Shown piece after piece: positions 753 through 16,668 of a stretch of 19,695 bases of DNA. Each line of letters opens with the position of its first letter. Positions within the stretch are counted from its first letter, which is position 1. The stretch is from a virus. Its lineage: Duplodnaviria > Heunggongvirae > Uroviricota > Caudoviricetes. A model generated the notes under the pieces. It was not told the origin of the DNA and searched no databases. It was given only the letters and a program-made list of their open reading frames with translations. The translations under genes were made by a program, and so were the position numbers. The stretch is taken from positions 1 to 19,695 of the IMG/VR virus record IMGVR_UViG_2700989272_000006; one strand, written 5' to 3'.

Positions 753-959
753 TAATGACAATAAAAAGCCCCGCGAATACGAGGCTAAATCCTGGTATTT
801 GTAATGACTGGCTCTTATCTCAACGCAGCCCCTTACCGCGCGCAAGATGCTCAATATCAAGCATCAGCAATGAGATATTTAATCTGGATTCACTCCAGAA
901 GTGATCACCACCCTGTCTACAGAGCCAGATGTGAAGGATGATGAGTAAAATTATCGCTA

Positions 960-1957: not shown

Positions 1958-2062
1958 GGATATTTATCAGGATTTATCGGTTTCTGAACCCTGGATATGT
2001 TTATCTGTCCCGGCCTGTTGAATCAGGCAAGGAATAGTTAAATACAATAGAGAGGATTGTTT

Positions 2063-2335
2063 ATGGACAATAGCACCATTTCTCTACAGGAGTTGCTCGA
2101 CTGCATTTCCAAGCTTCGGGATGATGTAAATGCCCTTACTGTCGCATTTTCATATCTGGCATTCTCAATTCCCAAGGAACAAATGCAACCAACACTGGCA
2201 TCGCTCCAGCTTGAATCACTCAACCCCAAATGGTCCCAGCAACAACAAAATTCTTTCAAGTGGCTGGCGGTATTACTGGAAGAAAAATATGCTGGTGAAA
2301 TTACCATTTCGGCGGAGTCTTCAGAGAACCAGTAA
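2063..2335 (+). CDS. Hypothetical 90-aa protein, reverse-oriented inside the lysis cassette (candidate moron)
   Basis: ATG at 2063 preceded by AGAGAGGA 6 nt upstream; fills a 344-bp gap between the endolysin start and the DUF1327 gene stop that has no minus-strand gene; hydrophilic, Q-rich product (MDNSTISLQELLDCISKLRDDVNALT...). Coding status unverified. Confidence 0.3.
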   Translation: MDNSTISLQELLDCISKLRDDVNALTVAFSYLAFSIPKEQMQPTLASLQLESLNPKWSQQQQNSFKWLAVLLEEKYAGEITISAESSENQ

Positions 2336-2645
2336 TTCTTCCCGGTAGCTTTCCTTTGTAGGTTATCCACACATTCTGCGCCTCTAAAATTATGGGGCGC
2401 TTTTCCGGCGACAGCTCATCCCCTTCACATAACCCGGCAGCAACATCCAGGAAGACCTGTCTGATGCTCCTTCTGGCTGCTGCCTCATAAAACTCCAGCG
2501 CGGCACCTTCAACACGGTCCAGCGAGATGTCCAGGTCAAAAATTTCACCGTCAAAGCGGTTTTTGTCCCGTAACGCTAAAGTTACCGTAACTTTATTCTC
2601 AAAATTGCGGATCCCTTTCACAATCAGTTCATAGTTTTGAGTCAT
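2301..2645 (-). CDS. DUF1327-like protein (YdfR-like), lysis-cassette-associated
   Basis: 114-aa ORF with ATG at 2645 and GGAGAG SD; located between holin and endolysin, the position YdfR occupies in the E. coli Qin prophage. The family assignment is from memory. Confidence 0.55.
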   Translation of the reverse strand: MTQNYELIVKGIRNFENKVTVTLALRDKNRFDGEIFDLDISLDRVEGAALEFYEAAARRSIRQVFLDVAAGLCEGDELSPEKRPIILEAQNVWITYKGKLPGRITGSLKTPPKW

Positions 2646-2649
2646 TGAA

Positions 2650-2865
2650 TTACTCTCCCCGTGCAGCCTTACGCTTGTCTTCTTTAATCTTGAAATAAAG
2701 ATTTGTCAGATACGTCAGCAGGCCAAACACCAGACTACCCAGCACACCTATTGCCGCCCACTGTGAGGGCGTGACTTTATCGAGCAACTGTAAAAACCAG
2801 TACCCGGCACTACCTGCTGAGGTGCCATAGGCGACACCCGTTGTTAACTTATCCATGGATTTCAT
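2650..2865 (-). CDS. Pinholin, phage 21 S21-like class II holin with dual-start motif
   Basis: [71 protein letters not shown] is near-collinear with the S21 pinholin as I recall it (two TM segments, charged C-terminus); Met1/Met4 dual start (2865 and 2856); strong GAGGTGGGG SD. Confidence 0.85.
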
Positions 2866-2932
2866 AACCCCACCTCGCAGATGCGGGTGCTGTGTAATGG
2901 AAATAAAAAGGCCACCTGACGTGGACACCAGA

Positions 2933-3985
2933 TTATTTCCCCACCAGCTCGTTTATCTCTTTCACTGTCTGGTTAAACCGCTCTGACTCAAGCTCAACAC
3001 CTAAGGCCCGACGCCCCAGCGCCATTGCTGCTTTTATTGTGGAACCGGATCCCATAAAAAAATCAGCAACCAGATCACCAGGTCGACTACTGGCATTGAT
3101 TATTTGCCTGAGCATATCCGCCGGTTTCTCACACGGATGTTTACCCGGGTAGAACTGAACGGGTTTATGCATCCAGACATCGGTATAAGGCACGGAGACT
3201 GATACGGAGAAATAGCGCCGGAGAGATTTAAACTCATCCAGCAATTCAGAATATTTGCGATTCAGTGAATCATAAGATGCCACCAGCTGGTGGTGTGGTT
3301 GTTCCAGTTGTTGTTCCTGAAACTTCTCTGCCGCTATACGGGAAAACAGTGCCTGTAACTTCCGATAGTCAGCCTCATTCGGCAACTGCCACTGACTGGC
3401 ACCAAACCAGTGGGAAACCATATTTTTCTTACCTGTGGCTTCGGCAATTTGTTTTGCCGTTATACCCAGTTCGGCACGAGCATCCCTGAAATACGATATC
3501 AGCGGTGCCATTATGTGCTGTTTGAGTTCCCTTTCTTTTGCCGCATAGCCGTCACTTTTGCCGCGATATGGCCCCTGGTAATGTTCAGCAAACAGAACGC
3601 GCTCTGTGGCAGGAAAATATGCGCGCAGACTTTCTTTATTACACCCATTCCAACGTCCGGACGGCTTCGCCCAGATGATATGGTTAAGCACGTTGAAACG
3701 TTCACGCATCATGATCTCAATATCAGATGCCAGGCGATGCCCACAGAACAGGTAAAGGCTTCCGGCAGGTTTTAACACCCGCCAGAACTGGGCCAGACAG
3801 TGGTCCAGCCACTTAAGGTAATCTTCGTCCCCTTTCCACTGATTGTCCCAGCCGTTGGGTTTCACCTTGAAGTACGGCGGATCGGTAACAATCAGGTCAA
3901 TGGAATCATCAGGCAGGGACTGAATAAAATGCAGGCAATCAGCGTTGATTAAATCAGCACTGTTTATTTTTACAGTATTTTTCAT
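2933..3985 (-). CDS. DNA methyltransferase, beta-class amino-MTase (N6-adenine or N4-cytosine)
   Basis: N-terminal catalytic motif IV (IVTDPPYF) and C-terminal AdoMet-binding motif I (DFFMGSGST) in the circularly permuted beta-class order; 350 aa; no cognate restriction enzyme recognised adjacent. Confidence 0.85.
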
Positions 3986-4135
3986 GGATCAGTAAGCGTA
4001 ACTCTGGTAGGCTCACTCTGCTTTTGCGCTAAAGCAGTGGGCCGTGGTTCGCTTGTGACCAGTAAGCATGAGCGAATGGCTGGCAGGTGCTACCAACACC
4101 CACCAGCCGCCCATTTTCACAGCAGGAAACCGCCA

Positions 4136-4339
4136 TTACTGGCAGCGTCTGAATTTATTCCCGTACCCGCCGTTATCCTTCGCCAGACCCGCCAGAACTA
4201 ACTGAGTCAGTATTAACTGGCACCGGGCTTCGCTTACTCCGGTAGTTCTCGTCATCATGCGTGGCGTTACCCACTTGTCAGCAGGTAAGAAATGAAGGAC
4301 TGCGGCGGCGGTTTCTGTCATATCTTGCTGTTTTAGCAT
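4136..4339 (-). CDS. Small putative winged-helix DNA-binding protein (67-75 aa)
   Basis: ORF 4136..4363; internal ATG at 4339 has an AAGGGA SD 7 nt upstream; sequence (TETAAAVLHFLPADKWVTPRMMTRTTGVSEARCQLILTQLVLAGLAKDNGG) has a wHTH-like pattern. Small size makes the call tentative. Confidence 0.4.
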   Translation of the reverse strand: MLKQQDMTETAAAVLHFLPADKWVTPRMMTRTTGVSEARCQLILTQLVLAGLAKDNGGYGNKFRRCQ

Positions 4340-4460
4340 GTCTTTTTCCCTTCTGGTTAACATGACATACCAATAACTCTTGTCTAAAAATCCAGCAAGA
4401 TAAAAAGTCAGTATTCACGACCACCAGCGTGTTTACTGTACTGCACCAAGTTTACAGGTA

Positions 4461-4487
4461 CAAAAAACCCGCTCAGTGGCGGGTTTA
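4461..4487 (-). terminator. Rho-independent terminator downstream of the 205-aa gene
   Basis: On the minus strand: stem acccgc / gcgggt with 6-nt loop followed by TTTTTTG; located 130 bp after the stop of the 4616..5233 gene. Confidence 0.6.
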
Positions 4488-4615
4488 AGTTGTGTGGCGA
4501 AGTAACCACTCTTAACACACTAATAGCATTTTTGTTATAACACAAGTAGCTCATTCAGTATTTTTAGAATCTTGACTTTCTTAAGCACGGCGAACTCTGA
4601 ATACCAAACATAAAA

Positions 4616-5233
4616 TCAATTATCTTCCAGGCCGGATGCTATCAACGAAAGCCTCTCAAAAAACGCTGTAGCAGCCTTGTCCAAAGTTGAATAAGTACTG
4701 TATTCTCCGTGTTCGGGACCAACCACTACCCATGGTCGTCTTTTTGGGATTCGGGACTTCTCAGAAATCACTGTTCCAGATATACCAATATCAATTGTTA
4801 CACCTGTTATTATTTTCTCTTCATCTCTTTCCCTGAACTCAATTGCCATAAATGCCGTTTTTTTTCGTTTCCCGTTTTTAAAAAAATCAAATAAAGCAAA
4901 GCGATGCTCATTAAAATCAACACCCCATCGTCCTTCAGGATAAAGGGCATGAAAGTTGTCATTTACGCTCTGCATCGTCTCATAAGCTTTAACTTCTAAA
5001 TCTCCATAGTGCATAGATACCGCGCAGGAGTCACTGGGTAACTGTATTTTCCCAAGATTGAAAACCTTTACTGCTCCAGAACTATGGCATCTTGCCCGCA
5101 ATTTATCCCCATTTATACTAATCGGAGAAATATTCCTTAATGTTCCGGGCTGGCTCCCTCCTAAGTAAACGACTGTTAAAGATTGCTTATTTTCAATTGC
5201 ATCAACTAATACATGCTCTACATTTTTATCCAT
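4616..5233 (-). CDS. Hypothetical protein (205 aa), AT-rich moron immediately downstream of Q
   Basis: ATG at 5233 with GGGAGG SD 5 nt upstream (the ORF-track start at 5260 is upstream of the SD). Lower GC than flanking phage genes; own terminator. No domain confidently recognised; the N-terminal 65 aa (LTVVYLGGSQPGTLRNISPISINGDKLRARC...VKVFNLGKIQL) weakly resemble a WYL/SH3-like beta-barrel pattern. Confidence 0.65.
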   Translation of the reverse strand: MDKNVEHVLVDAIENKQSLTVVYLGGSQPGTLRNISPISINGDKLRARCHSSGAVKVFNLGKIQLPSDSCAVSMHYGDLEVKAYETMQSVNDNFHALYPEGRWGVDFNEHRFALFDFFKNGKRKKTAFMAIEFRERDEEKIITGVTIDIGISGTVISEKSRIPKRRPWVVVGPEHGEYSTYSTLDKAATAFFERLSLIASGLEDN

Positions 5234-5260
5234 AATAACCTCCCGATGAACAGGTATCAT

Positions 5261-5330
5261 CAGGAGGTTATAATAAAATATGATTATTTACTTTGATTGA
5301 ATTTATTACTATATGTAACAATCAATTTCT
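5261..5330 (-). promoter_or_regulatory. Candidate late promoter (pR-prime-like) region overlapping the Q 3' end / Q-205aa intergenic spacer
   Basis: AT-rich stretch with sigma70-like hexamers (e.g. TTGATT ... TAATAAA) directly downstream of Q, where lambdoid phages place pR-prime and qut. Exact -35/-10 not resolved. Confidence 0.25.
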
Positions 5331-5680
5331 AAAGATACCCCCAACATTGCCAGACAACCGTCAATAAACCCTTCAGCTTTCTGCAGTCTGATAACAACCT
5401 GATTAAGTGATATCCCCAGTTTTACCCCCAACGCCCGTAATGTAACCCCATACACATAATACATTTCCAGTAATTCGTATTGATACGGTTCCTTTTTCTT
5501 AAGAACTGTCATTGCAGAGCTAATGATCAGGCCATCGTCATCGCTACATTGCGGGCGGGATTTTACTTTCGAAGGAATTAATCCCTTAAAACCTGCAGCA
5601 ACAGATGACCATTCCACATCCTCGTGATTATTTGCCACCCATGCCCCCCAACGTTCAAGAACCATTTGAATATCACGCAT
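5309..5680 (-). CDS. Q: Late-gene antiterminator Q (short QuuD / 933W-type)
   Basis: MRDIQMVLERWGAWVANNHEDVEWSSVAAGFKGLIPSKVKSRPQC... matches the N-terminus of short Q antiterminators as I recall them; first ATG at 5680 with GGAGAAA SD; positioned immediately upstream of the lysis region. Confidence 0.75.
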   Translation of the reverse strand: MRDIQMVLERWGAWVANNHEDVEWSSVAAGFKGLIPSKVKSRPQCSDDDGLIISSAMTVLKKKEPYQYELLEMYYVYGVTLRALGVKLGISLNQVVIRLQKAEGFIDGCLAMLGVSLEIDCYI

Positions 5681-5697
5681 CAACTTTCTCCACAAAA

Positions 5698-6693
5698 TCA
5701 GGCCAGCACGCCTATTGCCAGCGCACGATCGATAAAACGAAATATCAGCTCCAGCTGGGAGCCATACTTCTCTTCAAATGCCACGGTATCCGCATGCAGC
5801 TCGTCGTGATGCTTTCTGCACAAAGGCAACACAAAGAGGTCATGCGCTTTTGTACCCATTCCACCCTGACCGTGGCCTATCAGGTGGTGGGGATCATCAG
5901 CAGGCTTTCCACAACATGCACACGGCTGTGTCTTAACCCAGCGCGTGTACTTTTCATTAACCCAGCGGCGGCGTTTTGGGCGTAACATAAAAGACTCCGG
6001 CGACTCCGGATCCACTTTCAGCGCCAGCACCTTTTTCGCTTTATCCTGGATGATGCTGGTGGCAGGAACCGAAGGCACAAGGTCACTCTCCCGGGTGACA
6101 GACGGCACAACAGGTTTCGGTAATCTCAGCGCCTTACGGGCTGCGCTTTCAGGTAAGGCATCCGCCAGGTCATTACGAATCAGCCACCAGCACAGTTCCG
6201 GCATTGTCACGGCATGGTTATCATCAAAACCGAGATCCCGACGGACTACAGACAACACCCAGCGGGCACAGTTATCCGTTGCCATTGATTCCAGCCGTTC
6301 CGTGAACTGATCGCGCAGCTGGTTATCGCAGTGCCAGCACAGACGGATTGCGCCCGGAGCGTGTCGCATTGTGGTCATGTTCTCGCTGTGCCAGTCGGAA
6401 TGAGGCCACTGGCAGCCTTTTTCACGAAGTAACCAGCTTTCAAGACATTCCACGCCACCAGCACGACGGATCACTGCCTCATTGCGGAACACGGCCCGAA
6501 CGGCAGGATCATCCGCCAGCGGTTGTGATACCGCCGGAACGGCACCACTGGCGAAAGATGAATAACGTTCCGGCTCAGGCTCCAGCAGGACACGCCCCTG
6601 CATAAACAGGGGCATCAGCTCTGAACCTGGCCTGAACAATACGATCCCCATACGCGGGGCAATTTCAGGGGTCAGTAGTGCTCTCACGGTCAC
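5698..6693 (-). CDS. DUF968-like protein (YdfU-like) with C-terminal HNH/zinc-finger-like motif
   Basis: C-terminal CxxC ... HH ... H pattern (CACCGKPADDPHHLIGHGQGGMGTKAHDLFVLPLCRKHHDELH); occupies the YdfU position upstream of Q. Start uncertain (GTG 6693 or ATG 6651). Confidence 0.65.
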   Translation of the reverse strand: MTVRALLTPEIAPRMGIVLFRPGSELMPLFMQGRVLLEPEPERYSSFASGAVPAVSQPLADDPAVRAVFRNEAVIRRAGGVECLESWLLREKGCQWPHSDWHSENMTTMRHAPGAIRLCWHCDNQLRDQFTERLESMATDNCARWVLSVVRRDLGFDDNHAVTMPELCWWLIRNDLADALPESAARKALRLPKPVVPSVTRESDLVPSVPATSIIQDKAKKVLALKVDPESPESFMLRPKRRRWVNEKYTRWVKTQPCACCGKPADDPHHLIGHGQGGMGTKAHDLFVLPLCRKHHDELHADTVAFEEKYGSQLELIFRFIDRALAIGVLA

Positions 6694-6694
6694 C

Positions 6695-7504
6695 TCAATG
6701 AACGGTATCGAGCAGCTTTAACAGCTCAGGGAATCGGGATTCGAAGAAATGCGGCTGCGTCTCACGCGGATTTGCGGGACTGGTGATGTTCTTGCCGAAC
6801 ATGCAGCCTTTCGCCGTCAGCGACCAGAATTTTTTGATGTTGTTAATCCCGGTACGGCTGTATCGTTCGCGCTGCTCGACGATCCCCAGCTTCACCATCT
6901 GGTGATATGCCTGATTAGCCGTCAGGCGGATACCATACTGCTTCAGCAGTGCACTCAGCGACAGCGTCGGGCGGCTTGAGCCATCAGGCGCGTCAGCAGG
7001 TGCATCAATGGCATAGCGCGGTGCCAGATTCGGTAAGCCAACAGCCTCCTGGAGTTTCTGACAGGCACCAAGCACTGAAGAGTTAGACAGATTTAACTCC
7101 CGGCGCATAAAGTCCAGCAGGATCACGCCAGCCTGCATCTTGTCAGCAGCCTGTCCGGATAACTTTTCCGGCGCGCTGGTTACCATATCGAAAGTACGGA
7201 TCACCTTCAGATGGAATGACGGGCTGATCCACATTGCATAGGCATACACCAGTTCCTTACAGACATACGTTCCCCGTTCATTTCCCCCATGAATCACACT
7301 CACCGGGTCAACACCCAAATTCTGGGTGTTGGTTAATTCATGAACAAGCTCAACAGTTTGTTGGCTGGAAAGAAACTTTCCTGGCTCCTTGGTTCTGGCA
7401 TTTGCACCAGATGCTACTGCTGCGCGATGCAGATCGTTCAGGCTGTAACGCCCATAAGCATCACGACGAACTTCAATACCATCAATGACCATCAGATTAT
7501 TCAT
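6695..7504 (-). CDS. KilA-N domain protein (antirepressor-like)
   Basis: N-terminal KilA-N-like pattern (MVIDGIEVRRDAYGRYSLNDLHRAA...GGNERGTYVCKELVYAYAMWISPSFHLKV); ATG at 7504 with AGGAG-type SD. Confidence 0.7.
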   Translation of the reverse strand: MNNLMVIDGIEVRRDAYGRYSLNDLHRAAVASGANARTKEPGKFLSSQQTVELVHELTNTQNLGVDPVSVIHGGNERGTYVCKELVYAYAMWISPSFHLKVIRTFDMVTSAPEKLSGQAADKMQAGVILLDFMRRELNLSNSSVLGACQKLQEAVGLPNLAPRYAIDAPADAPDGSSRPTLSLSALLKQYGIRLTANQAYHQMVKLGIVEQRERYSRTGINNIKKFWSLTAKGCMFGKNITSPANPRETQPHFFESRFPELLKLLDTVH

Positions 7505-7523
7505 ACTTCGTTTCTCCTCTTAA

Positions 7524-7913
7524 TCAGGCAGCTGCACCCGCCGTTTTCTCGTACTTACTGATAGTGATCTCGACCTTCCCTTCCGGGATAACCGGTCCCC
7601 ACTCCACCAGCATTCTTTTCACCTGACTGTCGTCTTCCCACACCCCCGCGTGGGTCAGGGCGTCAAACAGCGCCTTGTTATAGTTGTCCAGATCGCGGAT
7701 CCTGTTATCCGGAGGAAACAACACGATCTCCACTGAAGCAGGTGCCGACGTTGGTTTCGGCAGACGACGTAACTGCTCAACTATTGCTGCACACGCCGCG
7801 CTCTGGAATTTGCGCCCCGCCGCGCTTATCAGGCTCTTACCTGCAAACGCCACTTTGTTGGGGTGTCGCCAGTACGTGTTCACGCTGGGCGGAAAAGGCA
7901 GTATTAGCTTCAT
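7524..7913 (-). CDS. rusA: Holliday junction resolvase RusA
   Basis: 129 aa; MKLILPFPPSVNTYWRH ... RIRDLDNYNKALFDALTHAGVWEDDSQV matches RusA family hallmarks (PxxxN..Y, catalytic DLDN). ATGA overlap with the upstream gene. Confidence 0.8.
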   Translation of the reverse strand: MKLILPFPPSVNTYWRHPNKVAFAGKSLISAAGRKFQSAACAAIVEQLRRLPKPTSAPASVEIVLFPPDNRIRDLDNYNKALFDALTHAGVWEDDSQVKRMLVEWGPVIPEGKVEITISKYEKTAGAAA

Positions 7914-8236
7914 ACTTTCAGGCCCCTCTCATGTAACCAGTGGGCTGCACGCAACCTGGCGTTCTCCTCACCGGCAAGCAGTGCGCGGATGATACCGACC
8001 GCCTCGCTGTCGTCGTCCTTCACCGCGGTATGAAGCGTGATGCCCCGGGCCACGCCACGCTTTATCGTGATGACGCCTTTTTTCTCCAGTGCGCGAAGAT
8101 GCTCCACCGCTGCATTCACTGAACGGTATCCCAGCATGGTTGCCACCTCCTGATTGGTTGGCGGGAAGCCACGTTCTTTCTGATAAGAAATCAGCATATC
8201 CAGCACCTGCTGCTGGCATTGAGTTAACGTCGTCAT
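7910..8236 (-). CDS. LexA DNA-binding-domain-only protein (winged helix, no S24 peptidase domain)
   Basis: MTTLTQCQQQVLDMLISYQKERGFPPTNQEVATMLGYRSVNAAVEHLRALEKKGVITIKRGVARGITL is collinear with the LexA N-terminal domain (LTxRQxEV ... GxPPT ... EHLKALxxKGxI); only 108 aa, so the catalytic domain is absent. Confidence 0.75.
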   Translation of the reverse strand: MTTLTQCQQQVLDMLISYQKERGFPPTNQEVATMLGYRSVNAAVEHLRALEKKGVITIKRGVARGITLHTAVKDDDSEAVGIIRALLAGEENARLRAAHWLHERGLKV

Positions 8237-8886
8237 GCCGCCATCTCCCTGACCAGTTTTTCTGCCTGCTGGCGAACCTGCGCCAGAAAGGCCTCACCAC
8301 ATGCCTCAAGTTCATCGCGCCCGATGTAGCTGATTGCCGGTCCCTTCCAGGTCTTGTCGAAAACAGCAATAGCACCAGCGAAGAAAGCGCCTGTCGGCAC
8401 CTGCTTCTCATCCTTCGGGATAAACCAGGCAGGCAGTTCAAAACCAATACGCCCGCGAATAAAAGCAATATGATCTGCATCTTCCGGCCACCACACTTCG
8501 CTGGTGGCAGCTTTGATCAGGAAAACATAGCGCCCGCCTTTATCACGCATGGCACTGGCATGCTTCATGATGTAACGCATGCCGGTGATGTATTGCCCCT
8601 CATGCTGACTGGCGCGGCTGTATGGGGGATTACCAAAGGCAGCACCTTTAAGCTCCGCAAGGCGTTCTGACCAGTCATGCGCCAGCGCGTTGTCTTCCGC
8701 CGTGTAATACGCAGCACATTTGGCGTTATCACCGTCAGTGAACAGATCCAGAACAAACGGGCCAAACAGGGTGTTAATTCCCCAGAAAATGTTGTCCGGC
8801 GTGCGCCACTGATCGCCCACTTCCTTCAGTTCATGGGCTGGTTTGTTCCGCAGTTCCGCCAGCGCCTGGCAATATTTATTACTCAT
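8233..8886 (-). CDS. Phage Dam-type DNA N6-adenine methyltransferase
   Basis: NPPY catalytic motif (FGNPPYS) in a phage N-6-adenine-MTase-like context; ATG at 8886 in a TAATG overlap with the upstream gene; ATGA overlap with the downstream gene. Confidence 0.8.
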   Translation of the reverse strand: MSNKYCQALAELRNKPAHELKEVGDQWRTPDNIFWGINTLFGPFVLDLFTDGDNAKCAAYYTAEDNALAHDWSERLAELKGAAFGNPPYSRASQHEGQYITGMRYIMKHASAMRDKGGRYVFLIKAATSEVWWPEDADHIAFIRGRIGFELPAWFIPKDEKQVPTGAFFAGAIAVFDKTWKGPAISYIGRDELEACGEAFLAQVRQQAEKLVREMAA

Positions 8887-9380
8887 TAAGCCCCCACGTA
8901 ATTCCCTGAGAGATACCACTCTTCACCTGATGCAGCCCGCTTACTGCTTTTCCGTAAACACCGTTCACGACGCGCCAGAAAATTGTTTCGTTCTGGCTGG
9001 GAGTGGCTTTCACGGAATGCCGCCATCCACACCGTTGCAGCACGACGGTATAAGCCCCTCGACTCCAGTTCTTCAGCCTGGCGGGTCAGGCACAAAATCA
9101 CCCGGGGGTCGTTAGTGCCGACATAGAACTTGCGCACAGGTCTGGTTTCACGAACTGGTTGTGGTTCCGGCTCCTGCGCTCTCTCAGTCAGGCGCGAGAA
9201 ATGTCTGCGTGTATCTCCTTCACAACGGTGAGCCACACGCCCACTCTGACGTAACTTGCTTGCTGACTGCAGAACGCGCTGCCGTGAGTAACCTGCAAAA
9301 GCATCCGCAATGTCTCCGGAAGTACAGCCCGGATGGGCTTCAATGAATTTCTGAACTTCATTCAAAATACTCATGCTCAC
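8886..9380 (-). CDS. wHTH-PerC-like protein (C-terminal PerC-family motif)
   Basis: C-terminal segment AEELESRGLYRRAATVWMAAF...ARRERCLR resembles the PerC/Pch signature (LExxGLWRRAAxRW) as I remember it; N-terminal 90 aa look like a winged helix. Start GTG 9380 (GTGA overlap with O-like stop) or ATG 9374. Confidence 0.45.
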   Translation of the reverse strand: MSMSILNEVQKFIEAHPGCTSGDIADAFAGYSRQRVLQSASKLRQSGRVAHRCEGDTRRHFSRLTERAQEPEPQPVRETRPVRKFYVGTNDPRVILCLTRQAEELESRGLYRRAATVWMAAFRESHSQPERNNFLARRERCLRKSSKRAASGEEWYLSGNYVGA

Positions 9381-10369
9381 CCCCTGAATCCTGCCGGGAT
9401 CTGGCTGTAGTCCACGTTGTCGTAACTGGATTTGAAATATGGGTCTTCGCGTTTTTCTGTGTATGTGCTGACGGACGGCGATAAGCGCAGGGAAAGCTCA
9501 TCCCATTTTTCCCGCAGCTTCGACGGGCTGAGCACGTTACGGCACCAGAACGGATCGCGGCTGACGCGGCTGTACATCTCGCAGATTTGTTTGTGAGTAC
9601 GACCATCCTGCACACACATCAGGCGAATTTCGTTTGCCCAGGCTGTCCAGTTCGGTTCTTTGGGACGAACCACCTCGCCGTCACATTCGGCGGCCTGCTC
9701 GTACAGGGCGATGATTTTTTTCCAGAGCCACTGTGCGCAGGTCAAATCATCCTGCGTTCCCCACTGGCGCTTTTTAGGGCTGAATACAACCGCATCAGGA
9801 TGGCGAGTTAAAAACTCCTGTTCAGCCGTTTGCGTGTCCGGTTGCGAAGCGTCCGGACGAGAAGAGGTTTTATTCTCTGTAGTAATCTCTGTTGTATTCT
9901 CTGTAAGATCATTGGGCCATTTTGACCCGATGACAGCGTGTCGTTTTGAACCAATGGATCGTGTCATTTTGCGCCCATCCATCAGGTCACTTTGACCCGA
10001 TGGAGAAGTGCATTTTGACCTGATGGATTCGTTCACTTTGACCTCTTCTAAAAGCTCACTTTCATAGTTGATCGTGTAGAAGTTGGTCATGTCACGCTTC
10101 GATTTATTGAGTTGCTCGCGACGCAAAACCCCAAGTGATTTCAGGCTTGCAAATGTGCGTTTCAGAGTGGACTCTGACCAGAACGGAAACTGCTCCAGCC
10201 ACTGTTCTGTCGTGTTATAAACCCAGCGAATTCCGCCATGCTCAGTGCCTGAATTCGTTTCATTCAGCCAGTAATGAAGCTGCTGCAACACAATTGCCTC
10301 ATTCAGACCAATACGGCATGCAAGATCACGATTTATCACAATGGGCTGGGATGTCATTAACAGGCTCAT
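9377..10369 (-). CDS. Replication initiator (lambda O-like; iteron-containing gene)
   Basis: 330-aa ORF containing an internal array of six direct repeats plus 12-bp repeats encoding a Thr/Glu/Asn-rich linker (TENTTEITTENKT), the hallmark of lambdoid O genes that carry ori; N-terminal domain is HTH-like. The C-terminal domain family is not confidently assigned. Confidence 0.7.
   Translation of the reverse strand: MSLLMTSQPIVINRDLACRIGLNEAIVLQQLHYWLNETNSGTEHGGIRWVYNTTEQWLEQFPFWSESTLKRTFASLKSLGVLRREQLNKSKRDMTNFYTINYESELLEEVKVNESIRSKCTSPSGQSDLMDGRKMTRSIGSKRHAVIGSKWPNDLTENTTEITTENKTSSRPDASQPDTQTAEQEFLTRHPDAVVFSPKKRQWGTQDDLTCAQWLWKKIIALYEQAAECDGEVVRPKEPNWTAWANEIRLMCVQDGRTHKQICEMYSRVSRDPFWCRNVLSPSKLREKWDELSLRLSPSVSTYTEKREDPYFKSSYDNVDYSQIPAGFRG
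9872..9907. repeat. Three tandem 12-bp repeats (TCTCTGT core) flanking the iteron array
   Basis: ctctgt cores at 9875, 9887 and 9899; adjacent to the iterons, analogous to the repeat/AT-rich region next to lambda ori; encodes the TEN/TEI/TEN linker. Confidence 0.55.
9918..10045. repeat. Origin-like iteron array: six direct repeats (consensus approx CAYTTTGACCYGATGG) at 23-bp spacing
   Basis: Repeat starts at 9918, 9941, 9965, 9988, 10011, 10034 (cattttgacccgatg / tcgttttgaaccaatgg / cattttgcgcccatcc / cactttgacccgatgg / cattttgacctgatgg / cactttgacctc), all inside the O-like gene. Confidence 0.75.
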
Positions 10370-10590
10370 GCCGCACCTCCGAGATGCTTCATGTTTTTTC
10401 CGGAGCGAAAGGCTATAAGCGGCATACTGACGCGGTAATTACGGCCCAGCGGTTCACAAATCACCTTCTGACATTCACGGTCAACCAGGCTAACACGTAG
10501 AACATGCCCTGCAGGCGTGGTGTACCACTGACCGGGGCGAGGACAACGGAAAGTCTGATTGGTAAATCGTTTGAAAATATTCCGGATCAT
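10366..10590 (-). CDS. Hypothetical protein (74 aa), translationally coupled within the replication operon
   Basis: ATG at 10590 overlaps the Rha-gene TGA stop (ATGA), and its own stop overlaps the O-like ATG (ATGA); no recognisable domain. Confidence 0.5.
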   Translation of the reverse strand: MIRNIFKRFTNQTFRCPRPGQWYTTPAGHVLRVSLVDRECQKVICEPLGRNYRVSMPLIAFRSGKNMKHLGGAA

Positions 10591-11735
10591 TTGCGCCCCC
10601 TTACCTCTGAAGAGTTCAGCGACGAATGAATAAGACGGGCAAGAAATGCCGCATCGTTAATTCGGTCATACAGACTTACAGCCAGAGGTGATTCAGCTTT
10701 TTCCAGCATGGGATAAAGCTGCTGCAACCAGACCTGATGAATTGATGAAATGTAGGAATAGAGAACGCTGGCGTTATGTGCAACGTCGCTCGGTACAGCG
10801 GGCTTTGAAAGCTGTTTCTCCATCTGGTTAAAGGCATTGATGTATGCCTCTTTGAACTGGGCAGCACGTTTACCCGTGAAACCCATAGCAAGAAACGCAA
10901 AGCCGTCGCGGGTTATTTGATAGCAAGGTAGTTTGCGGCCTGTGCAATCGGTGTAATCACTCACCGAAAAATTGCGGGCAGTGAATGATGCGGAACATTC
11001 AAGCGTGCGGATCTTTTTCAGTACATCGTCATGACGTTTGGAGAAGAAGTTGGCAACAGCCAGGGATGAAGTAACAGCCTGACCATCAACGATGGCAATT
11101 TCAGGTTGAGTGAGGGTTGGGATCGTAGCCATGATGGCAGTCTCCGATAACAGTGAATTACCTTCACCACCGGAAACGCCAATTTCGCTGGTGGTGAACT
11201 GAACGGGGTTGGCGTAACCGGCGTTATCGGAAACCGGCGCACCTTTCGGTGCCCCCGTCCAGCCCACCATAATTTGGGTGTGCACAGACGCAGACGATAA
11301 AAAAGACGCTGGCGCGTCATATATCGCCGATAACATTTCCAGGACGCCAATCCCGACACCCGCTTTATAAGGTGCCTGAACAGTGTAACGTCCCGGAATG
11401 GCAGAATCAATGTGCTGGTGGTCCTTCACACTCAACAAAATCACGCCTGAATTTCCACAAAGGACTAAAGCACTCATGCGGGTAGTCTTTGCGAAGATAG
11501 ATAACGCGCTGTGTTTCTGGCTCCCAACGAATAACATGGACATAAAGCCCTCTTCCGTCACGAAACCAGCGGTTAAGTTCCTGCACAACTCGCCCCCCAC
11601 AGTCAGGTAAAGTTCTCTGTGGTTACTTACAGCCAGGTGATTTGGTAATCTGCATTCATGCCGTAACAACAGGTGTTCAGCGACGCTGACCACCAGCTGT
11701 TGCGACAAACGGTTATTTGCCGTTAAACTGTTCAT
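10587..11735 (-). CDS. Rha-domain phage regulatory protein with about 200-aa N-terminal extension of unknown function
   Basis: Residues about 205-300 (VTSSLAVANFFSKRHDDVLKKIRTLECS...YQITRDGFAFLAMGFTGKRAAQFKEAYINAF) match the Rha/ORF6-type pattern; ATG at 11735 with GGAGAAA SD and ATGA overlap with the upstream stop support the long form. The N-terminal half has atypical composition. Confidence 0.6.
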   Translation of the reverse strand: MNSLTANNRLSQQLVVSVAEHLLLRHECRLPNHLAVSNHRELYLTVGGELCRNLTAGFVTEEGFMSMLFVGSQKHSALSIFAKTTRMSALVLCGNSGVILLSVKDHQHIDSAIPGRYTVQAPYKAGVGIGVLEMLSAIYDAPASFLSSASVHTQIMVGWTGAPKGAPVSDNAGYANPVQFTTSEIGVSGGEGNSLLSETAIMATIPTLTQPEIAIVDGQAVTSSLAVANFFSKRHDDVLKKIRTLECSASFTARNFSVSDYTDCTGRKLPCYQITRDGFAFLAMGFTGKRAAQFKEAYINAFNQMEKQLSKPAVPSDVAHNASVLYSYISSIHQVWLQQLYPMLEKAESPLAVSLYDRINDAAFLARLIHSSLNSSEVRGRK

Positions 11736-12295
11736 GCGTTAGTTTCTCCACAGACACAAAACGCCACGACGCCCGGAGCTGCACACTCGCGGGCGTCACT
11801 CTTTTCTGGAGCGCAAAAGATTTTGTAGACCAGTGCTGCATGCTCCTGGAGCTTCGAAATTGACAGATACAACTCATCATTAATTGCTGTCTGCTCGTGT
11901 GGCTCCACTACCCCATCTTCGATTGCCGAACGAATCTGCTTTGAGTAACTCCCGATCTGTTCGATGACTTCCAGCAGGCGCTGGTTTATATCGGCGTTCT
12001 CTACTTCCTCAAGTTCAGGAAGCGATACAAACACCCCACCAGCAGACTGTGCGACAGCATCCGCAATGTAGTGAGTGCCAGCCGCGCGCTGTAAAATCAT
12101 TGCCCATCCCAGCGGGAAAATCTGATCGCCATCTGCACGAAGGCGGTTGAATAAAGCGTTCTCTGTTACATCCAGCCACTCAGCAGCTTCAGCGTAACCT
12201 CCCGGCAACGCCGCGATAGTTTTTCTGACAGCTTTCACGTACCACTCAGGCTGTTTTTCTACTTTCCAGTGATGCTTACCCACGGTTAGCCTCAT
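11732..12295 (-). CDS. Early regulatory protein in cII position (cII/YdaT-like), function unverified
   Basis: 187-aa ORF directly downstream of cro-like gene; HTH-like segment (GYAEAAEWLDVTENALFNRLR); assignment is positional. Confidence 0.45.
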   Translation of the reverse strand: MRLTVGKHHWKVEKQPEWYVKAVRKTIAALPGGYAEAAEWLDVTENALFNRLRADGDQIFPLGWAMILQRAAGTHYIADAVAQSAGGVFVSLPELEEVENADINQRLLEVIEQIGSYSKQIRSAIEDGVVEPHEQTAINDELYLSISKLQEHAALVYKIFCAPEKSDARECAAPGVVAFCVCGETNA

Positions 12296-12326
12296 CGTTC
12301 TGTGGTTAAAAATTGAAGGTGTTCTG

Positions 12327-12527
12327 TTAATCTTTCGGATAGATATCCGGTCTTAAGTCAGATTTCGTAATTGCACCTGACGTGCATTGCTCAAGTTTTT
12401 TAGCCAGCACAAAACTGGCTTTTTTATAACCATTGAAAACCAGCCGTAAGTAGCCTGGTGTTGAGCCAACTTTTCCGGCCAACTCGCCCTGCTGTTCTTT
12501 GGTTAAAGAGTCCCAATACGCTTTCAT
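12327..12527 (-). CDS. cro: Cro-like repressor (66 aa)
   Basis: C-terminal part of ORF 12327..12830 (MKAYWDSLTKEQQGELAGKVGSTPGYLRLVFNGYKKASFVLAKKLEQCTSGAITKSDLRPDIYPKD) resembles Cro/YdaS-type HTH; internal ATG at 12527 has a GGAGG SD and lies just downstream of the PR-like promoter. The upstream part of the ORF overlaps cI antisense and is considered non-coding. Confidence 0.65.
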   Translation of the reverse strand: MKAYWDSLTKEQQGELAGKVGSTPGYLRLVFNGYKKASFVLAKKLEQCTSGAITKSDLRPDIYPKD

Positions 12528-12617
12528 ACAATATGTACCTCCGATATACATATTACATGATTGAGATGAACCTTCAAGATACTTGTACCCTATCGGTACA
12601 AAGGTTTTAATTTCGTT
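12528..12617. promoter_or_regulatory. OR-like divergent control region: two 19-bp palindromic operators (12533-12551 ATGTACCtccgaTATACAT; 12583-12601 TTGTACCctatcGGTACAA) and PR-like promoter (minus; -35 TTGAAG 12572-12577, -10 TAATAT 12550-12555)
   Basis: Perfect or near-perfect 7-5-7 palindromes sharing the half-site (A/T)TGTA(C/T)C, positioned between divergent cI-like and cro-like genes; the -10 overlaps operator 1. Confidence 0.65.
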
Positions 12618-13292
12618 ATGAAAACAGTCCATGACATCCGGCGGTCTAACGCCAGAAAACTGAGAGATGGTGTTGGCGGGAATTCTTCCTTTGCCACCAT
12701 GATTGATCGCGAGCCAACCCAGACCAGCAGGTTTATGGGAGATGGTGCTACTAAAAATATCGGTGACAGCATGGCACGGCACATCGAAAAATGTTTCGAC
12801 CTGCCTGTCGGATGGCTTGATCAAGAACACCAGACAACAAACATCACAAAAAAACCTGATGTTTCAATTACTAACAAACAAATAACGTTAGTCCCTGTCA
12901 TATCATGGGTACAGGCCGGAGCATGGAAAGAAGTTGGCTATTCTGAGGTTGATTTGAGCACAGCAGAAACTTATCCCTGCCCTGTACCCTGTGGCGAAAT
13001 GACTTATATCTTGCGGGTGATTGGTGATTCAATGATTGATGAGTACCGCCCGGGAGACATGATTTTTGTTGATCCTGAAGTCCCTGCCTGCCACGGTGAC
13101 GACGTTATTGCATTGATGCACGATACAGGCGAAACCACCTTCAAGCGGTTGATAGAAGATGGAACACAGCGTTACCTCAAAGCATTAAACCCAAACTGGC
13201 CTGAACCTTACATTAAGATCAACGGTAATTGCTCTATAATTGGTACAGTGATTTTCTCAGGAAAACCAAGAAGATACAAAATAAAGGCCTAA
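12618..13292 (+). CDS. cI: CI-like prophage repressor with C-terminal S24 (LexA-like) autopeptidase domain
   Basis: C-terminal domain with Ser/Lys dyad context (VIGDSM ... TFKRL) and Ala-Gly cleavage-site-like motif (VISWVQAGAW); N-terminal 70 aa HTH-like; divergent from cro with operators between. An in-frame TGA at 12567-12569 rules out an upstream extension. Confidence 0.85.
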   Translation: MKTVHDIRRSNARKLRDGVGGNSSFATMIDREPTQTSRFMGDGATKNIGDSMARHIEKCFDLPVGWLDQEHQTTNITKKPDVSITNKQITLVPVISWVQAGAWKEVGYSEVDLSTAETYPCPVPCGEMTYILRVIGDSMIDEYRPGDMIFVDPEVPACHGDDVIALMHDTGETTFKRLIEDGTQRYLKALNPNWPEPYIKINGNCSIIGTVIFSGKPRRYKIKA

Positions 13293-13304
13293 TCAATATT
13301 TATA

Positions 13305-13328
13305 ACCTGCTTCGGCAGGTTTTTTTAT
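13305..13328 (+). terminator. Intrinsic terminator after cI (acctgc-ttcg-gcaggt + TTTTTTAT)
   Basis: 6-bp GC-rich stem, GNRA-like tetraloop, 6-T run immediately downstream of cI stop (13290-13292). Confidence 0.7.
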
Positions 13329-13330
13329 AC

Positions 13331-13375
13331 TTGACAATGTACCCTTGAGATACATAATGTATCTAAAAGAAACAT
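13331..13375 (+). promoter_or_regulatory. pL-like promoter (-35 TTGACA 13331-13336, 16-bp spacer, -10 CATAAT 13353-13358) overlapped by two operator palindromes (13337-13355 ATGTACCcttgaGATACAT; 13357-13375 ATGTATCtaaaaGAAACAT)
   Basis: Consensus -35 and near-consensus -10 with proper spacing; operators share the half-site found in OR and sit in the spacer and over the -10, as expected for repressor control of an early-left promoter. Confidence 0.7.
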
Positions 13376-13978
13376 AACACAGGCAAGATTAAACTAAATT
13401 TGGTTGTAACACGGCGTATGGCACATGCGTCGTTAGCGGTCTGGGGACGTTAAAGGGGACAATCCACTCCTTGCTCGAGCAAACAAACCAGGTAGCCGGA
13501 ATGTGCAAGTCAATGATGATGCTGATAAGACGCCTAACCAGCGTGGCGATTCGGTTTGACGCCTGGGAAGAGACCAGGGTGCAACGATGAGGGCATTTAT
13601 GGAACCGCGACAAAGTGTGGTGCCGTAACTGGCTAAGTGCTCTCAGCGTTGTGGTGAATGCGCAGGCTGATGCGCGAAAGACATTGCAGCTATTGCGGAA
13701 AAGAGCTGTTCGGCGGGGCAATTAAACGCCCGTGAGAGTCTGAAATAACCGCAAGCCGGAGATCAGCACCGGTCACCACAACAGCCACTGCTTTGGCGGT
13801 ACCAGTTTGTACACTTGCTTCCGGCTGGTACCGCTCTTTTTACAAAACAGAGAAGAGCATCACCGGACGACGGGCTCATAACCCAATCCATCCGGGCGGC
13901 TGCCACCGCAGGTGTTCTTCTCTGTTTTGTGGAGAAACTAACCGACCTTGCAGGGTCGATATGATGAGGAGCAGCAAA

Positions 13979-14341
13979 ATGGCTAGCGAACGCAGTACTG
14001 ATGTGCAGGCATTTATCGGGGAGCTGGACGGCGGCGTATTTGAAACCAAAATCGGCGCAGTTCTCAGTGAAGTCGCTTCCGGTGTGATGAACACGAAAAC
14101 CAAAGGTAAGGTCTCGCTCAACCTGGAAATCGAACCATTTGATGAGAACCGTGTGAAAATCAAACACAAACTCTCATATGTTCGCCCGACTAACCGCGGG
14201 AAAATTTCCGAAGAAGACACCACCGAAACACCGATGTATGTCAATCGCGGTGGTCGCCTGACTATTCTGCAGGAAGACCAGGGACAATTACTGACTCTTG
14301 CCGGTGAACCTGACGGAAAACTACGCGCAGCAGGTCATTAA
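13979..14341 (+). CDS. Hypothetical early-left protein (120 aa; YfdP-like by size and position, unverified)
   Basis: ATG at 13979 with GAGGAG SD 7 nt upstream; the longer ORF-track form (from 13793) lacks an SD and is probably leader. Confidence 0.55.
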   Translation: MASERSTDVQAFIGELDGGVFETKIGAVLSEVASGVMNTKTKGKVSLNLEIEPFDENRVKIKHKLSYVRPTNRGKISEEDTTETPMYVNRGGRLTILQEDQGQLLTLAGEPDGKLRAAGH

Positions 14342-14406
14342 TATCGTTCTTAATTAACTGATTATTTATCTCATCACTGAATATCTTTATATAGTGAGGA
14401 CTGATT

Positions 14407-15231
14407 ATGTCTCATAACTTAGACGCAACCGCAATTAATCAAATCCATGCCCTTATTTCTGCTCAGGGTGTTAATGAAATCATCAGTAAGATTGGTGCCG
14501 ATGCTGTGGCATTGCCTGAGAATTTCCGCATTCATGATCTGGAAAAATTTAATTTAAATCGTTTCCGTTTCCGTGGTGCGCTTTCCACTGCCAGCATCGA
14601 TGACTTTACCCGTTATTCTAAAGATCTTGCAGATGAAGGCACCCGCTGCTTTATCGATGCCGATAATATGCGTGCCGTCAGTGTGCTTAACCTGGGTACT
14701 ATTGATGAGCCAGGTCACGCAGATAACACTGCCACTCTCAAACTGAAAAAGACAGCACCGTTCTCTGCTCTGTTGTCTGTTAATGGCGAGCGTAACTCCC
14801 AGAAGTCACTGGCAGAATGGATTGAAGACTGGGCCGACTACCTTGTGGGCTTTGATGCTAATGGTGACACCATTCAGGCAACCAAAGCGGCTGCGGCGAT
14901 CCGTAAAATCACAATTGAAGCGAACCAGACCGCTGATTTTGAAGATAATGACTTCAGCGGCAAACGCTCCCTGATGGAGTCTGTCGAAGCGAAGACCAAA
15001 GACATTATGCCAGTGGCATTTGAATTTAAATGCGTTCCGTTTGAAGGCCTGAAAGAACGTCCATTTAAATTACGCCTCAGCATTATCACTGGCGATCGTC
15101 CTGTACTGGTTCTGCGCATTATTCAGCTGGAAGCGGTGCAGGAAGAAATGGCTAACGAATTTCGTGATCTGCTTGTTGAGAAATTCAAAGACAGCAAAGT
15201 AGAAACCTTTATTGGTACTTTCACCGCCTGA
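14407..15231 (+). CDS. Hypothetical protein, DUF2303-like (YfdQ-like), 274 aa
   Basis: ATG at 14407 with GAGGA SD; size and operon context match the CPS-53 yfdQ-type gene as I recall it; no catalytic motif identified. Confidence 0.6.
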
Positions 15232-15358
15232 TTTCATTACTGCAAATGCCCCTGCGGGGGCATTTATGGAAACGTAATTAACTCAATAATCACCGAATGG
15301 TGAGGGCTTCCTTTTACCAGAATTCAGCGCGGTGCAGTGCATATACGTGGAGAACAAA

Positions 15359-15895
15359 ATGTCATTTATTAAAACTTTTTCCGGGAAGCATTTTTATTAT
15401 GACAAGATAAATAAAGACGACATCGTTATTAACGATATCGCGGTTTCCCTTTCAAATATCTGTCGCTTTGCAGGACATCTTTCACACTTCTACAGCGTCG
15501 CCCAACATGCGGTGCTTTGCAGCCAGCTGGTACCGCAGGAATTTGCTTTTGAAGCGTTAATGCATGATGCAACAGAAGCATATTGTCAGGACATCCCCGC
15601 ACCACTGAAACGCCTTCTTCCTGACTATAAACGGATGGAAGAAAAAATAGACGCCGTAATCCGTGAGAAATACGGGTTACCTCCTGTTATGAGCACGCCA
15701 GTGAAATATGCCGATCTCATTATGCTGGCAACCGAACGCCGCGATCTCGGGCTTGATGATGGTTCTTTCTGGCCTGTACTGGAAGGTATCCCGGCGACAG
15801 AGATGTTCAAAGTTATTCCACTGTCACCAGGCCATGCCTACGGGATGTTTATGGAACGTTTTAACGAGTTATCGGGGTTACGCAAATGCGCATGA
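15359..15895 (+). CDS. HD-domain phosphohydrolase (YfdR-like 5'-deoxynucleotidase family), 178 aa
   Basis: HD motif in LMHDATEAYCQDIP plus upstream His (FAGHLSHF...AQH); ATG at 15359 with GGAGAA SD; the ORF-track start at 15332 lacks an SD. Confidence 0.7.
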   Translation: MSFIKTFSGKHFYYDKINKDDIVINDIAVSLSNICRFAGHLSHFYSVAQHAVLCSQLVPQEFAFEALMHDATEAYCQDIPAPLKRLLPDYKRMEEKIDAVIREKYGLPPVMSTPVKYADLIMLATERRDLGLDDGSFWPVLEGIPATEMFKVIPLSPGHAYGMFMERFNELSGLRKCA

Positions 15896-16473
15896 ATGTT
15901 TTCGAAATGGAAGGGTTTCTTCGCGGGAAATGTGTACCGCGAGATCTGAAAGTGAACGAAACAAACGCTGAGTACCTGGTGCGTAAATTTGCTGAAGCTG
16001 AGGCCAAGTGCGCGGCGCTGGCTGAACGTATCGAAGAGTTACAGACAAAACCTACGCCAGATTCGTTTGGCATCATCGGTGAAAACATTCGAACACAGGA
16101 TAATCGAATAACGTCAGACCCTATGTTTTGTGTGTATCAAAAGCGCGAAATTGTTGTTGATGCTGATTATGACTATGACCGGATTGTCTGGGTTGATGAA
16201 GATAGCAATGAAGCCAATAAACTCCAAAGTCGTCGTCTCGAACTACTTCATGAAAACTTTCGGGAACCACCAGAAAAATGGCGGCGCGTTGCTGTGAAAG
16301 ATATTGATGAATTCGTTACCTGCTGTTTCACCGAACAGGGTTGTAAAGACTACCTGGCAGCCAATGGTCACAATCTTCGCTTGCCATTTATATATGTAAA
16401 AAGCGGTTTCAGGAACGCTGAATATATCGGCATAAGAAACTGGCTTGCTGGCATTCGCATCAAAGGAGAGTGA
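15886..16473 (+). CDS. Hypothetical protein (195 aa)
   Basis: ORF overlapping the stop of the HD gene by 10 nt; acidic, coiled-coil-like N-terminus; no recognised domain. Confidence 0.55.
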   Translation: MRMNVFEMEGFLRGKCVPRDLKVNETNAEYLVRKFAEAEAKCAALAERIEELQTKPTPDSFGIIGENIRTQDNRITSDPMFCVYQKREIVVDADYDYDRIVWVDEDSNEANKLQSRRLELLHENFREPPEKWRRVAVKDIDEFVTCCFTEQGCKDYLAANGHNLRLPFIYVKSGFRNAEYIGIRNWLAGIRIKGE

Positions 16474-16474
16474 G

Positions 16475-16666
16475 ATGATCGGACAAATATCAATTGTTCG
16501 ACCGGGAGCATGTGACGATCGCGAGATACGAATGATTATTCGTCTGGCAATAGGGAAAACAATAACTGCTCTCATTACTCCTGAAAATCTCGCATTAGCG
16601 TTAACAGGAAAGTCAGACCTGCCAGTAGAGCTAAAGCTGCGAAATATTGAGATTAAAGTGAAATAG
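16475..16666 (+). CDS. Small hypothetical protein (63 aa)
   Basis: ATG at 16475 with GGAGAG SD; the stop of the preceding gene overlaps the start (TGAGATG). Confidence 0.4.
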   Translation: MIGQISIVRPGACDDREIRMIIRLAIGKTITALITPENLALALTGKSDLPVELKLRNIEIKVK

Positions 16667-16668
16667 TT

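Follow-up and report, generated by a model that had tools for sequence, protein, structure and literature searches.

The 19,695-nucleotide (nt) stretch of DNA analysed here, referred to as the window (IMG/VR record IMGVR_UViG_2700989272_000006, positions 1 to 19,695), is a lambdoid prophage of Escherichia coli, and this work concerns its replication module, which belongs to the rightward early operon and lies here on the minus strand. The module consists of a replication initiator gene with an array of repeats inside it and of yfdN, the two open reading frames (ORFs) sharing 4 nt; both genes were found where the original prediction, made by a model from the letters alone, had placed them (Table 1). 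The prophage falls into the CPS-53/SfV/mEp460 group of lambdoid prophages, and the genes of the module and their arrangement are already known and annotated. We describe here that the initiator ends in the C-terminal peptide of the host protein DnaT (protein i), that no phage helicase loader accompanies it, and what these two features might mean for helicase loading.

Table 1. Features of the replication module and its neighbours, in positions of the window.
Feature	Position	Strand	Basis
Replication initiator gene, 330 amino acids (aa)	9377-10369	-	ORF call; PHROG 391
Initiator N-terminal winged-helix putative origin-binding domain, about residues 1-105	10055-10369	-	RepA_N/DnaD-like
Six iterons, 23-bp phase; core TCAYTTTGACCYGATGGA, dyad GGTCA-N3-TGACC	9914-10051	.	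repeat analysis; consensus matching
AT-rich region, 12-bp repeat TCTCTGTAGTAA, 2.7 copies, 85% matches	9874-9905	.	Tandem Repeats Finder (TRF)
Initiator lambda-O-type C-terminal domain, residues 183-296	9482-9823	-	BLASTP; AlphaFold2 (AF2)
Initiator disordered C-terminal tail TEKREDPYFKSSYDNVDYSQIPAGFRG	9380-9460	-	last nine residues (9380-9406) match host DnaT C-terminus
yfdN, 164 aa	8886-9380	-	ORF call; PF06069
YfdN N-terminal winged helix, residues 1-62	9195-9380	-	structure model
YfdN C-terminal three-helix PerC domain, residues 92-150	8931-9107	-	model, predicted local distance difference test (pLDDT) above 90
74-aa ORF	10366-10590	-	PHROG 1153; shares 4 nt with initiator start
LexA DNA-binding-domain protein, 108 aa	7910-8236	-	PF01726, 2.9e-19
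Ash-Rha fusion, 382 aa	10587-11735	-

The initiator matched PHROG 391 ('replication initiation O-like') over its full length (1e-101); it gave no Pfam or NCBIfam family match and, like YfdN, no match to PDB chains at E<=10 in a sequence search. Its AF2 model, built from a shallow alignment and of low to moderate confidence (mean pLDDT 55), shows a winged helix (residues 14-100), a helical domain (residues 183-296, pLDDT about 56-83) and an unstructured tail; at that level of confidence, the N-terminal domain appears to fold like the winged helices of RepA_N and DnaD proteins. The original prediction had called the protein O-like. This description suits the C-terminal domain, as residues 147-294 align with residues 135-270 of lambda O at 33% identity (E 9e-27, BLASTP) within a lambda-O-type domain family of 2667 clusters at 50% identity. 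It does not suit the N-terminal domain, for Phage_rep_O (PF04492), which matches lambda O itself at 5.8e-36, gave no Pfam match to the initiator at E<=0.1. In the initiator, a winged helix that appears to be of RepA_N/DnaD type is joined to a C-terminal domain of lambda-O type and a DnaT-like tail; we found no report of such a build in the literature searched. With lambda O, ori-lambda and P, the module shares an origin located within the gene of the initiator, iterons that are in phase, contain dyads and are followed along transcription by an AT-rich region, an interdomain linker encoded by iteron DNA, and homologous C-terminal domains. It differs from lambda in its N-terminal domain, in having six iterons rather than the four generally known for lambda, in the lack of a P gene after the initiator, both in the window and in the whole genome of phage mEp460_4F5, and in its tail, which is of DnaT type instead of lambda's ...LDLTNTDWIYGVDL. 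From iteron plasmid initiators, including the staphylococcal RepA_N protein (PDB 4PTA), it is distinguished by its phage context, by the origin inside the gene, by the lambda-O-type C-terminal domain and by the absence of DnaA boxes.

The last nine residues of the initiator (SQIPAGFRG, in the ending ...NVDYSQIPAGFRG) and of E. coli DnaT (SQIPPGFRG, in the ending ...SEPDSQIPPGFRG) are identical at 8 of 9 positions, and both stand at the extreme C-terminus. The comparison with E. coli DnaT was suggested by Rapid Annotation using Subsystem Technology (RAST), which labels a class of 272-aa phage initiators 'Primosomal protein I', that is, DnaT. Across the 120 DnaT clusters retrieved, IP[PR]GFRG-COOH is near-invariant, and homologues of the initiator show little or no variation in their last seven residues, in contrast to the 20 before them, which vary; one subgroup of these homologues, ending in SEPDTEIPPGFRG or ISEPDTEIPPGFRG, is identical to DnaT at 11 of 13 positions. 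The conserved end of DnaT (...IPPGFRG-COOH) and that of the initiator can be written together as SQIP[PA]GFRG-COOH, and in both proteins it closes a flexible tail (PMC5778457). Both proteins would also act upstream of DnaB-DnaC loading, DnaT according to the literature and the initiator presumably, and in E. coli dnaT lies directly upstream of dnaC. The initiator differs from DnaT in having neither the three-helix DnaT DNA-binding domain (PF17948) nor the PriB-binding N-terminal domain of DnaT.

The same tail is also found on initiators of other kinds. In Stx2c-converting phages, the gene before yfdN encodes an unrelated 272-aa initiator of HTH_36/DnaD_N type, the last 27 residues of which match those of the window initiator, and the tail also ends Phg_2220_C-type initiators (mEp390 gp42) and PHROG 2418 proteins. 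The DnaT-type tail behaves as a portable short linear motif, and its portability between unrelated bodies argues against a contact with the protein's own body. The PHROG 2418 proteins (281 and 319 aa, with a weak HTH_36 match) end in ...EQWGIPAGFRG or ...DREDWSIPEGFRG, the tail being encoded at L167:3859-3882 and L185:4338-4361.

The original prediction had recognised no P- or DnaC-like loader, and our searches agree. Five proteins served as queries against all six frames of the window over its full length, namely lambda P, a P-like protein, the DnaC and DnaB proteins of E. coli and a DnaC-like protein from a prophage, and none gave a match at E<=10. No loader or helicase family was matched by Pfam in nine ORFs (6695-12295), or by PHROGs and NCBIfam in three (initiator, YfdN and the 74-aa ORF; 8886-10590), and neither an AAA+ DnaC-like nor a Phage_lambda_P domain was found in the initiator, in YfdN or in the window ORFs. 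Phage mEp460_4F5 has an initiator 99.1% identical to that of the window, and the same scan of its complete 42.9-kb genome detected no P-, DnaC- or DnaB-like ORF. A missing loader might simply reflect decay, in a module that is defective or dependent on a helper, and the CPS-53 copy of E. coli K-12 is indeed truncated. However, the ORFs in the window are intact, the same arrangement turns up again in other genera, and the near-identical initiator with the same downstream genes is present in deposited phages, some of which were propagated on E. coli C or ECOR13, their listed hosts. Since deposited phages carry the same loader-less module, the absence of a loader appears to be a trait of working phages and not a sign of decay. 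A defective prophage is hardly credible as an explanation, and we rejected it on account of the identical module in deposited phage genomes.

Relatives that share the initiator body differ in their tails and in their loaders. The window initiator ends in ...YSQIPAGFRG and is followed by yfdN, with no loader. In contig P0016, which has the same iterons and a body 80% identical to that of the window, the tail is the tryptophan-rich ...GDWNSADGWEDVL, which resembles the ...NTDWIYGVDL of lambda O, and the next gene encodes a Phage_lambda_P protein. In contig P0047, with a body 71% identical, the tail is ...SEPDTEIPSGFRG (SEPD..IPSGFRG) and the next gene encodes a DnaC homologue, 50% identical to E. 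coli DnaC. Compared with the window initiator, these two would represent a natural tail swap, and tail type seems to predict loader type among relatives of a shared body. Rac-type prophage modules, in which an O-like initiator is accompanied by a DnaC homologue, resemble the window module in the initiator body (71% identical), in the iterons and in the IPxGFRG tail, but possess a DnaC-type loader of their own (50% identical to E. coli DnaC) where the window has none.

A wider association between tail and loader was seen in a species survey with one genome per species, for which 68 loci were retrieved and 65 of them, plus the P0016 and P0047 contigs, were scored over 3.5 kb downstream; genes there were classed with a small set of reference proteins, by which an unrecognised type of loader would be missed. 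Of the 29 loci with a tryptophan-rich acidic tail, 26 had a P-like gene no more than 3.5 kb downstream, which suggests that this tail is itself a P-docking element. IPxGFRG tails were never followed by a P-like gene (0/15); a DnaC-like gene was present in 3 of the 15 loci and no loader in 12. The association of tail class with a P-like gene gave a Fisher value of 3.5e-9, computed with the relatedness of the loci ignored. Among IMG/VR viral contigs, 107 ORFs ended in IPxGFRG-TGA, with a P-like gene downstream of none and a DnaC-like gene downstream of 18, and the SEPD..IPPGFRG subtype pairs with a DnaC-like gene (16/18).

The tails found on initiators whose C-terminal domain is of lambda-O type fall into several distinct classes. 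One of these, acidic and rich in tryptophan, reads ...HWNSxEAWExxL or ...NTDWxxGVDL (L100-L157; L012:5001-5975). Two Edwardsiella loci (L105 and L109) are exceptions to its rule, with a tryptophan-rich tail, no P-like gene and a small PerC-like ORF downstream; the prophage may have decayed there, or the genes may be arranged differently. In Oxalobacteraceae (Duganella, Janthinobacterium), prophage initiators that share this C-terminal domain have a third conserved tail, ...GNFxxQDYRAGVxxDGSF, and no P-, DnaC- or DnaB-like gene was found within 3.5 kb downstream in the loci concerned (L139, L141, L143, L145, L147, L150 and L151).

Inside the initiator gene, the origin-like array that the original prediction had described could be confirmed, including its number of iterons and their spacing. 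The 23-mers start in exact register at 9914, 9937, 9960, 9983, 10006 and 10029, and the dyad GGTCA-N3-TGACC, present in every one of them, would suit a protein that binds as a dimer. With up to 3 mismatches, the 18-nt consensus TCAYTTTGACCYGATGGA occurs five times in the window, always within 9917-10027 (four direct copies and one minus-strand match that arises from the internal dyad); shuffled sequence gave a mean of 0.07 matches, and 0 of 200 shuffles reached 5. Iterons 3 and 6 are degenerate (5 and 4 mismatches by our own count) and the other four are strong. The 12-bp repeat is located beyond the iterons as seen from the promoter, where the G+C content of the initiator gene reaches its minimum (0.325 at 9860-9899), and encodes TENTTEITTENK, part of a linker that had been predicted to be flexible; residues 113-177, encoded by the iterons and the 12-mers, are indeed unstructured in the AF2 model (pLDDT about 25-44). 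In ori-lambda, the iterons come first and the AT-rich stretch follows in the direction of transcription. As the order is the same here, the 12-mer region is a probable DNA-unwinding element as well as linker-coding DNA. Relatives whose N-terminal domain is the same, with other tails and loaders (L012, L013), have retained the iterons in their DNA; in L098 and L102, in which the N-terminal domain differs, other repeats stand in their place, as would be expected of a cognate initiator-origin pair. We infer from this architecture that the phased iterons and the AT-rich region function as an origin. In a 299-aa homologue of the initiator (P0013), the iteron-encoded linker is 31 residues shorter, which corresponds to roughly four iterons, so that iteron number and linker length vary together.

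Several iteron plasmids load their helicase via DnaA. The N-terminal domain of the window initiator appears to resemble a plasmid RepA_N initiator, and a similar route might be envisaged for the phage, with the origin opened by the initiator and DnaB-DnaC recruited by host DnaA bound close to it. But no DnaA box lies in or beside the origin, the nearest site being about 1.7 kb away, and the box TTATNCACA shows no enrichment in the window when up to one mismatch is tolerated (20 sites against an expected 17.7). We therefore regard a DnaA-dependent route as very unlikely.

The gene downstream of the initiator had been predicted to encode a winged-helix protein with a PerC-like C-terminus, and this was borne out: the PerC profile PF06069 matches residues 100-151 with 36.2 bits (gathering score 22.6), and in the structure model a disordered linker joins a confident winged helix to a three-helix PerC domain. 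The PerC-like gene is no discovery, however; it is the known yfdN, which the Prokaryotic Genome Annotation Pipeline (PGAP) already names a PerC family regulator. The YfdN family is small and confined to Enterobacteriaceae (200 clusters), and the N-terminal half of the protein has weak matches to Ren-like and MarR-type families. Against NF033650, the profile of the AraC negative regulator (ANR) family, residues 98-144 scored 23.7 bits, below the cutoff of 32, and this sub-threshold match hints that PerC-type domains act by protein-protein contact. YfdN resembles PerC of enteropathogenic E. coli and Pch of enterohaemorrhagic E. coli (PF06069) in its C-terminal three-helix domain, which matches their profile above the gathering score; it differs from them by the additional N-terminal winged helix and linker, and no activity on ler or LEE1 has been reported for it. 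Only group 1 Pch proteins strongly activate ler (PMC5931665; PMC6265319). In the former study, which calls yfdN 'the K12 unique PerC homologue', the gene was removed from a reporter strain as a precaution (PMC5931665).

The position of yfdN, which is that of lambda P, and its 4-nt overlap with the initiator stop raise the question of whether YfdN could be the missing adaptor, in which case the tail would dock YfdN and YfdN would bring the host helicase as lambda P does. Behind initiator bodies that are unrelated to one another, the tail and yfdN travel together as a single mosaic unit, 57 of 64 phage records with the tail also have YfdN, and in IMG/VR the NVDYSQIPAGFRG subtype is linked to YfdN. 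On the other hand, the same tail ends the host's own DnaT, and YfdN, with its winged helix and PerC domain, has no similarity to P or DnaC. Tail-bearing initiators may be followed by DnaC-like, Dam, MT-A70, DUF977 or ParB-like genes without YfdN; in cdtI, mEp390 and Klebsiella phage vB_VIPKPNMC05 they are followed by neither YfdN nor a loader, as in most species-level loci with the tail, and YfdN-like genes also follow initiators that lack it (L123). This makes YfdN an improbable adaptor. The existence of tail-bearing initiators with neither YfdN nor a loader suggests that YfdN is not needed for replication; on these genomic grounds it looks dispensable and no substitute for P. In loader-bearing relatives, small winged-helix genes (DUF977, DUF1627) come after the loader, which would place YfdN in the slot of lambda ren and not in that of P. 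The most likely role of YfdN is that of a regulator, exerted by way of the winged helix and the PerC domain.

In lambda, the C-terminal part of O contacts P, and P brings DnaB. The window initiator ends in the tail of DnaT and has no phage loader beside it, so it probably borrows the host DnaC-DnaB machinery. The initiator would bind, probably as dimers, to the six phased iterons inside its own gene and open the adjacent AT-rich 12-mer region, the same DNA doubling as code for the disordered linker between its two domains. The C-terminal domain would have been kept and its tryptophan-rich tail exchanged for the IPxGFRG-COOH peptide of DnaT, with P absent, and this tail would dock the host DnaB6-DnaC6 complex at the opened origin, its partner being, as we infer from sequence comparison, DnaC or DnaB. 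The phage would thus mimic DnaT and use host DnaC as its loader, and YfdN would be an accessory early-operon protein in the ren slot, outside the replication machinery. We consider the chances of this scenario, taken as a whole, to be about even. The idea that the C-terminus of the initiator recruits the host helicase was already part of the original prediction; it gains a candidate element in a DnaT-like tail that excludes a P-type loader, and it still rests on sequence and gene context.

Several observations weigh against docking of the host helicase by the tail. The likeness to DnaT is confined to the tail: profile-profile alignment (hhalign) covers 9 columns with a probability of 7.6%, and the Pfam DnaT family (PF17948) does not match the C-terminal 150 residues of the initiator even at E<=10. 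The C-terminal domain as a DnaT-type domain was therefore rejected, the common element being the tail only. The AF2 model of the initiator is, as mentioned, of low to moderate confidence. Furthermore, the NVDYSQIPAGFRG subtype, to which the window belongs, goes with YfdN or with nothing in IMG/VR, mostly with YfdN, and this leaves room for a contact between the tail and YfdN. The survey loci include relatives and are not phylogenetically independent, and the tail physically adjoins the downstream gene, so that its association with loader type could partly be linkage within mosaic modules. As for DnaT itself, no contact with DnaC is documented (PMC5778457, PMC11087952), the tail of about 20 residues has been described just as highly flexible (PMC5778457), and a 2026 study of the preprimosome proposes the N-terminal oligomer of DnaT, and not the tail, as the recruiter (PMC13377028). 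That study states the recruitment mechanism as unknown, and a search of its text for 'tail' and 'C-terminus' found no mention of the DnaT tail (PMC13377028).

The tail might also be functional in a manner unrelated to the loader, such as self-oligomerisation, handling of single-stranded DNA, or binding of PriA, PriC, SSB or primase. We consider this unlikely, because the tail excludes P-type loaders and co-occurs with DnaC-type ones, and because an initiator already bound to its origin has no obvious need for PriA or PriB. Beyond docking of host DnaB-DnaC in the window, a more general proposal can be made, with somewhat less than even confidence. IPxGFRG might be the element by which DnaT hands DnaB-DnaC to a restart site, copied by temperate phages of Enterobacterales and related elements onto at least four unrelated initiator bodies, where it would enable the use of DnaC-type loaders, of host or phage, without a P-type adaptor. 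In that case, the C-terminal tails of lambda-O-type initiators would amount to docking codes, exchangeable for one another, that specify the loader.

The early operon in which the module lies begins, next to a divergently transcribed LexA-family cI-like repressor gene, with cro, a CII/YmfL-like gene, DUF4222, an Ash-Rha fusion and the 74-aa ORF, and continues on the minus strand with the initiator, YfdN, Dam, a LexA DNA-binding-domain protein, RusA, KilA-N, DUF968 and Q. A scan of the operon for promoters and terminators found nothing remarkable. The 74-aa ORF accompanies this initiator position in relatives, and in an Stx2c phage its homologue precedes the unrelated initiator. The Ash-Rha protein, upstream of the initiator, has a shorter counterpart in the Stx2c phage (278 aa), with a different C-terminus. 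A LexA DNA-binding domain is the sole content of the 108-aa protein, which has no peptidase domain; phages cdtI, mEp390, Ayreon and PhiR29_2 have it conserved in the corresponding place. It could compete with LexA for SOS boxes.

The module is widespread: the 1.8-kb region is matched in part by 3585 of 5426 complete E. coli genomes, and 80% or more of it is present in 98. A search of viral contigs for related loci returned near-identical copies only. The same module is found in the mEp460_4F5, PhiR29_2, SfII, SfIV, SfV and ST64B phages, and the cryptic prophage CPS-53 (KpLE1) of E. coli K-12 retains its genes as yfdO-yfdN-yfdM; CPS-53 and the phage modules have in common the order initiator, YfdN, Dam, LexA DNA-binding-domain protein, RusA. 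K-12 YfdN is 96% identical to that of the window, and K-12 YfdO (122 aa; L164:3379-3747) corresponds to the last 122 residues of the window initiator. Thus, by sequence comparison, the window initiator is the intact form of yfdO, and yfdO is an N-terminally truncated copy that has lost the N-terminal domain and the origin. SfV, the reference mEp460 and the Stx2c phages differ in having an HTH_36-type initiator body before the same tail and YfdN. The DnaT-type tail is intact in the truncated YfdO, which, if expressed, could titrate the partner of the tail.

With yfdO a truncated copy of the initiator and yfdN already annotated, the module has to be considered as known and widespread (CPS-53, SfV, ST64B, mEp460). 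Loader-less lambdoid modules are also said to have been catalogued by Weigel and Seitz in 2006 under the term 'initiator-solo'. In the searchable literature, we found neither the tail as a motif common to DnaT and phage initiators, nor its portability between unrelated bodies, nor the fact that it and P-type loaders exclude each other. PGFRG, IPAGFRG and IPEGFRG as motifs led to unrelated papers only, mostly on collagen, and 'DnaT-like' and 'DnaT homolog' to nothing on phages.

The PerC-family neighbour carries less weight than first hoped, being the known YfdN and apparently unnecessary for replication. The module itself is ordinary and widespread, with a remnant in K-12, but the tail evidence offers a concrete, testable answer to the question of how lambdoid phages without a loader of their own load DnaB. 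According to reviews and to the 2026 preprimosome structures, how DnaT recruits DnaB/DnaC is unknown (PMC5778457, PMC11087952, PMC13377028). A nine-residue peptide common to DnaT and to phage initiators, and excluded with P-type loaders, would be an obvious candidate for the contact between DnaT and DnaB/DnaC.

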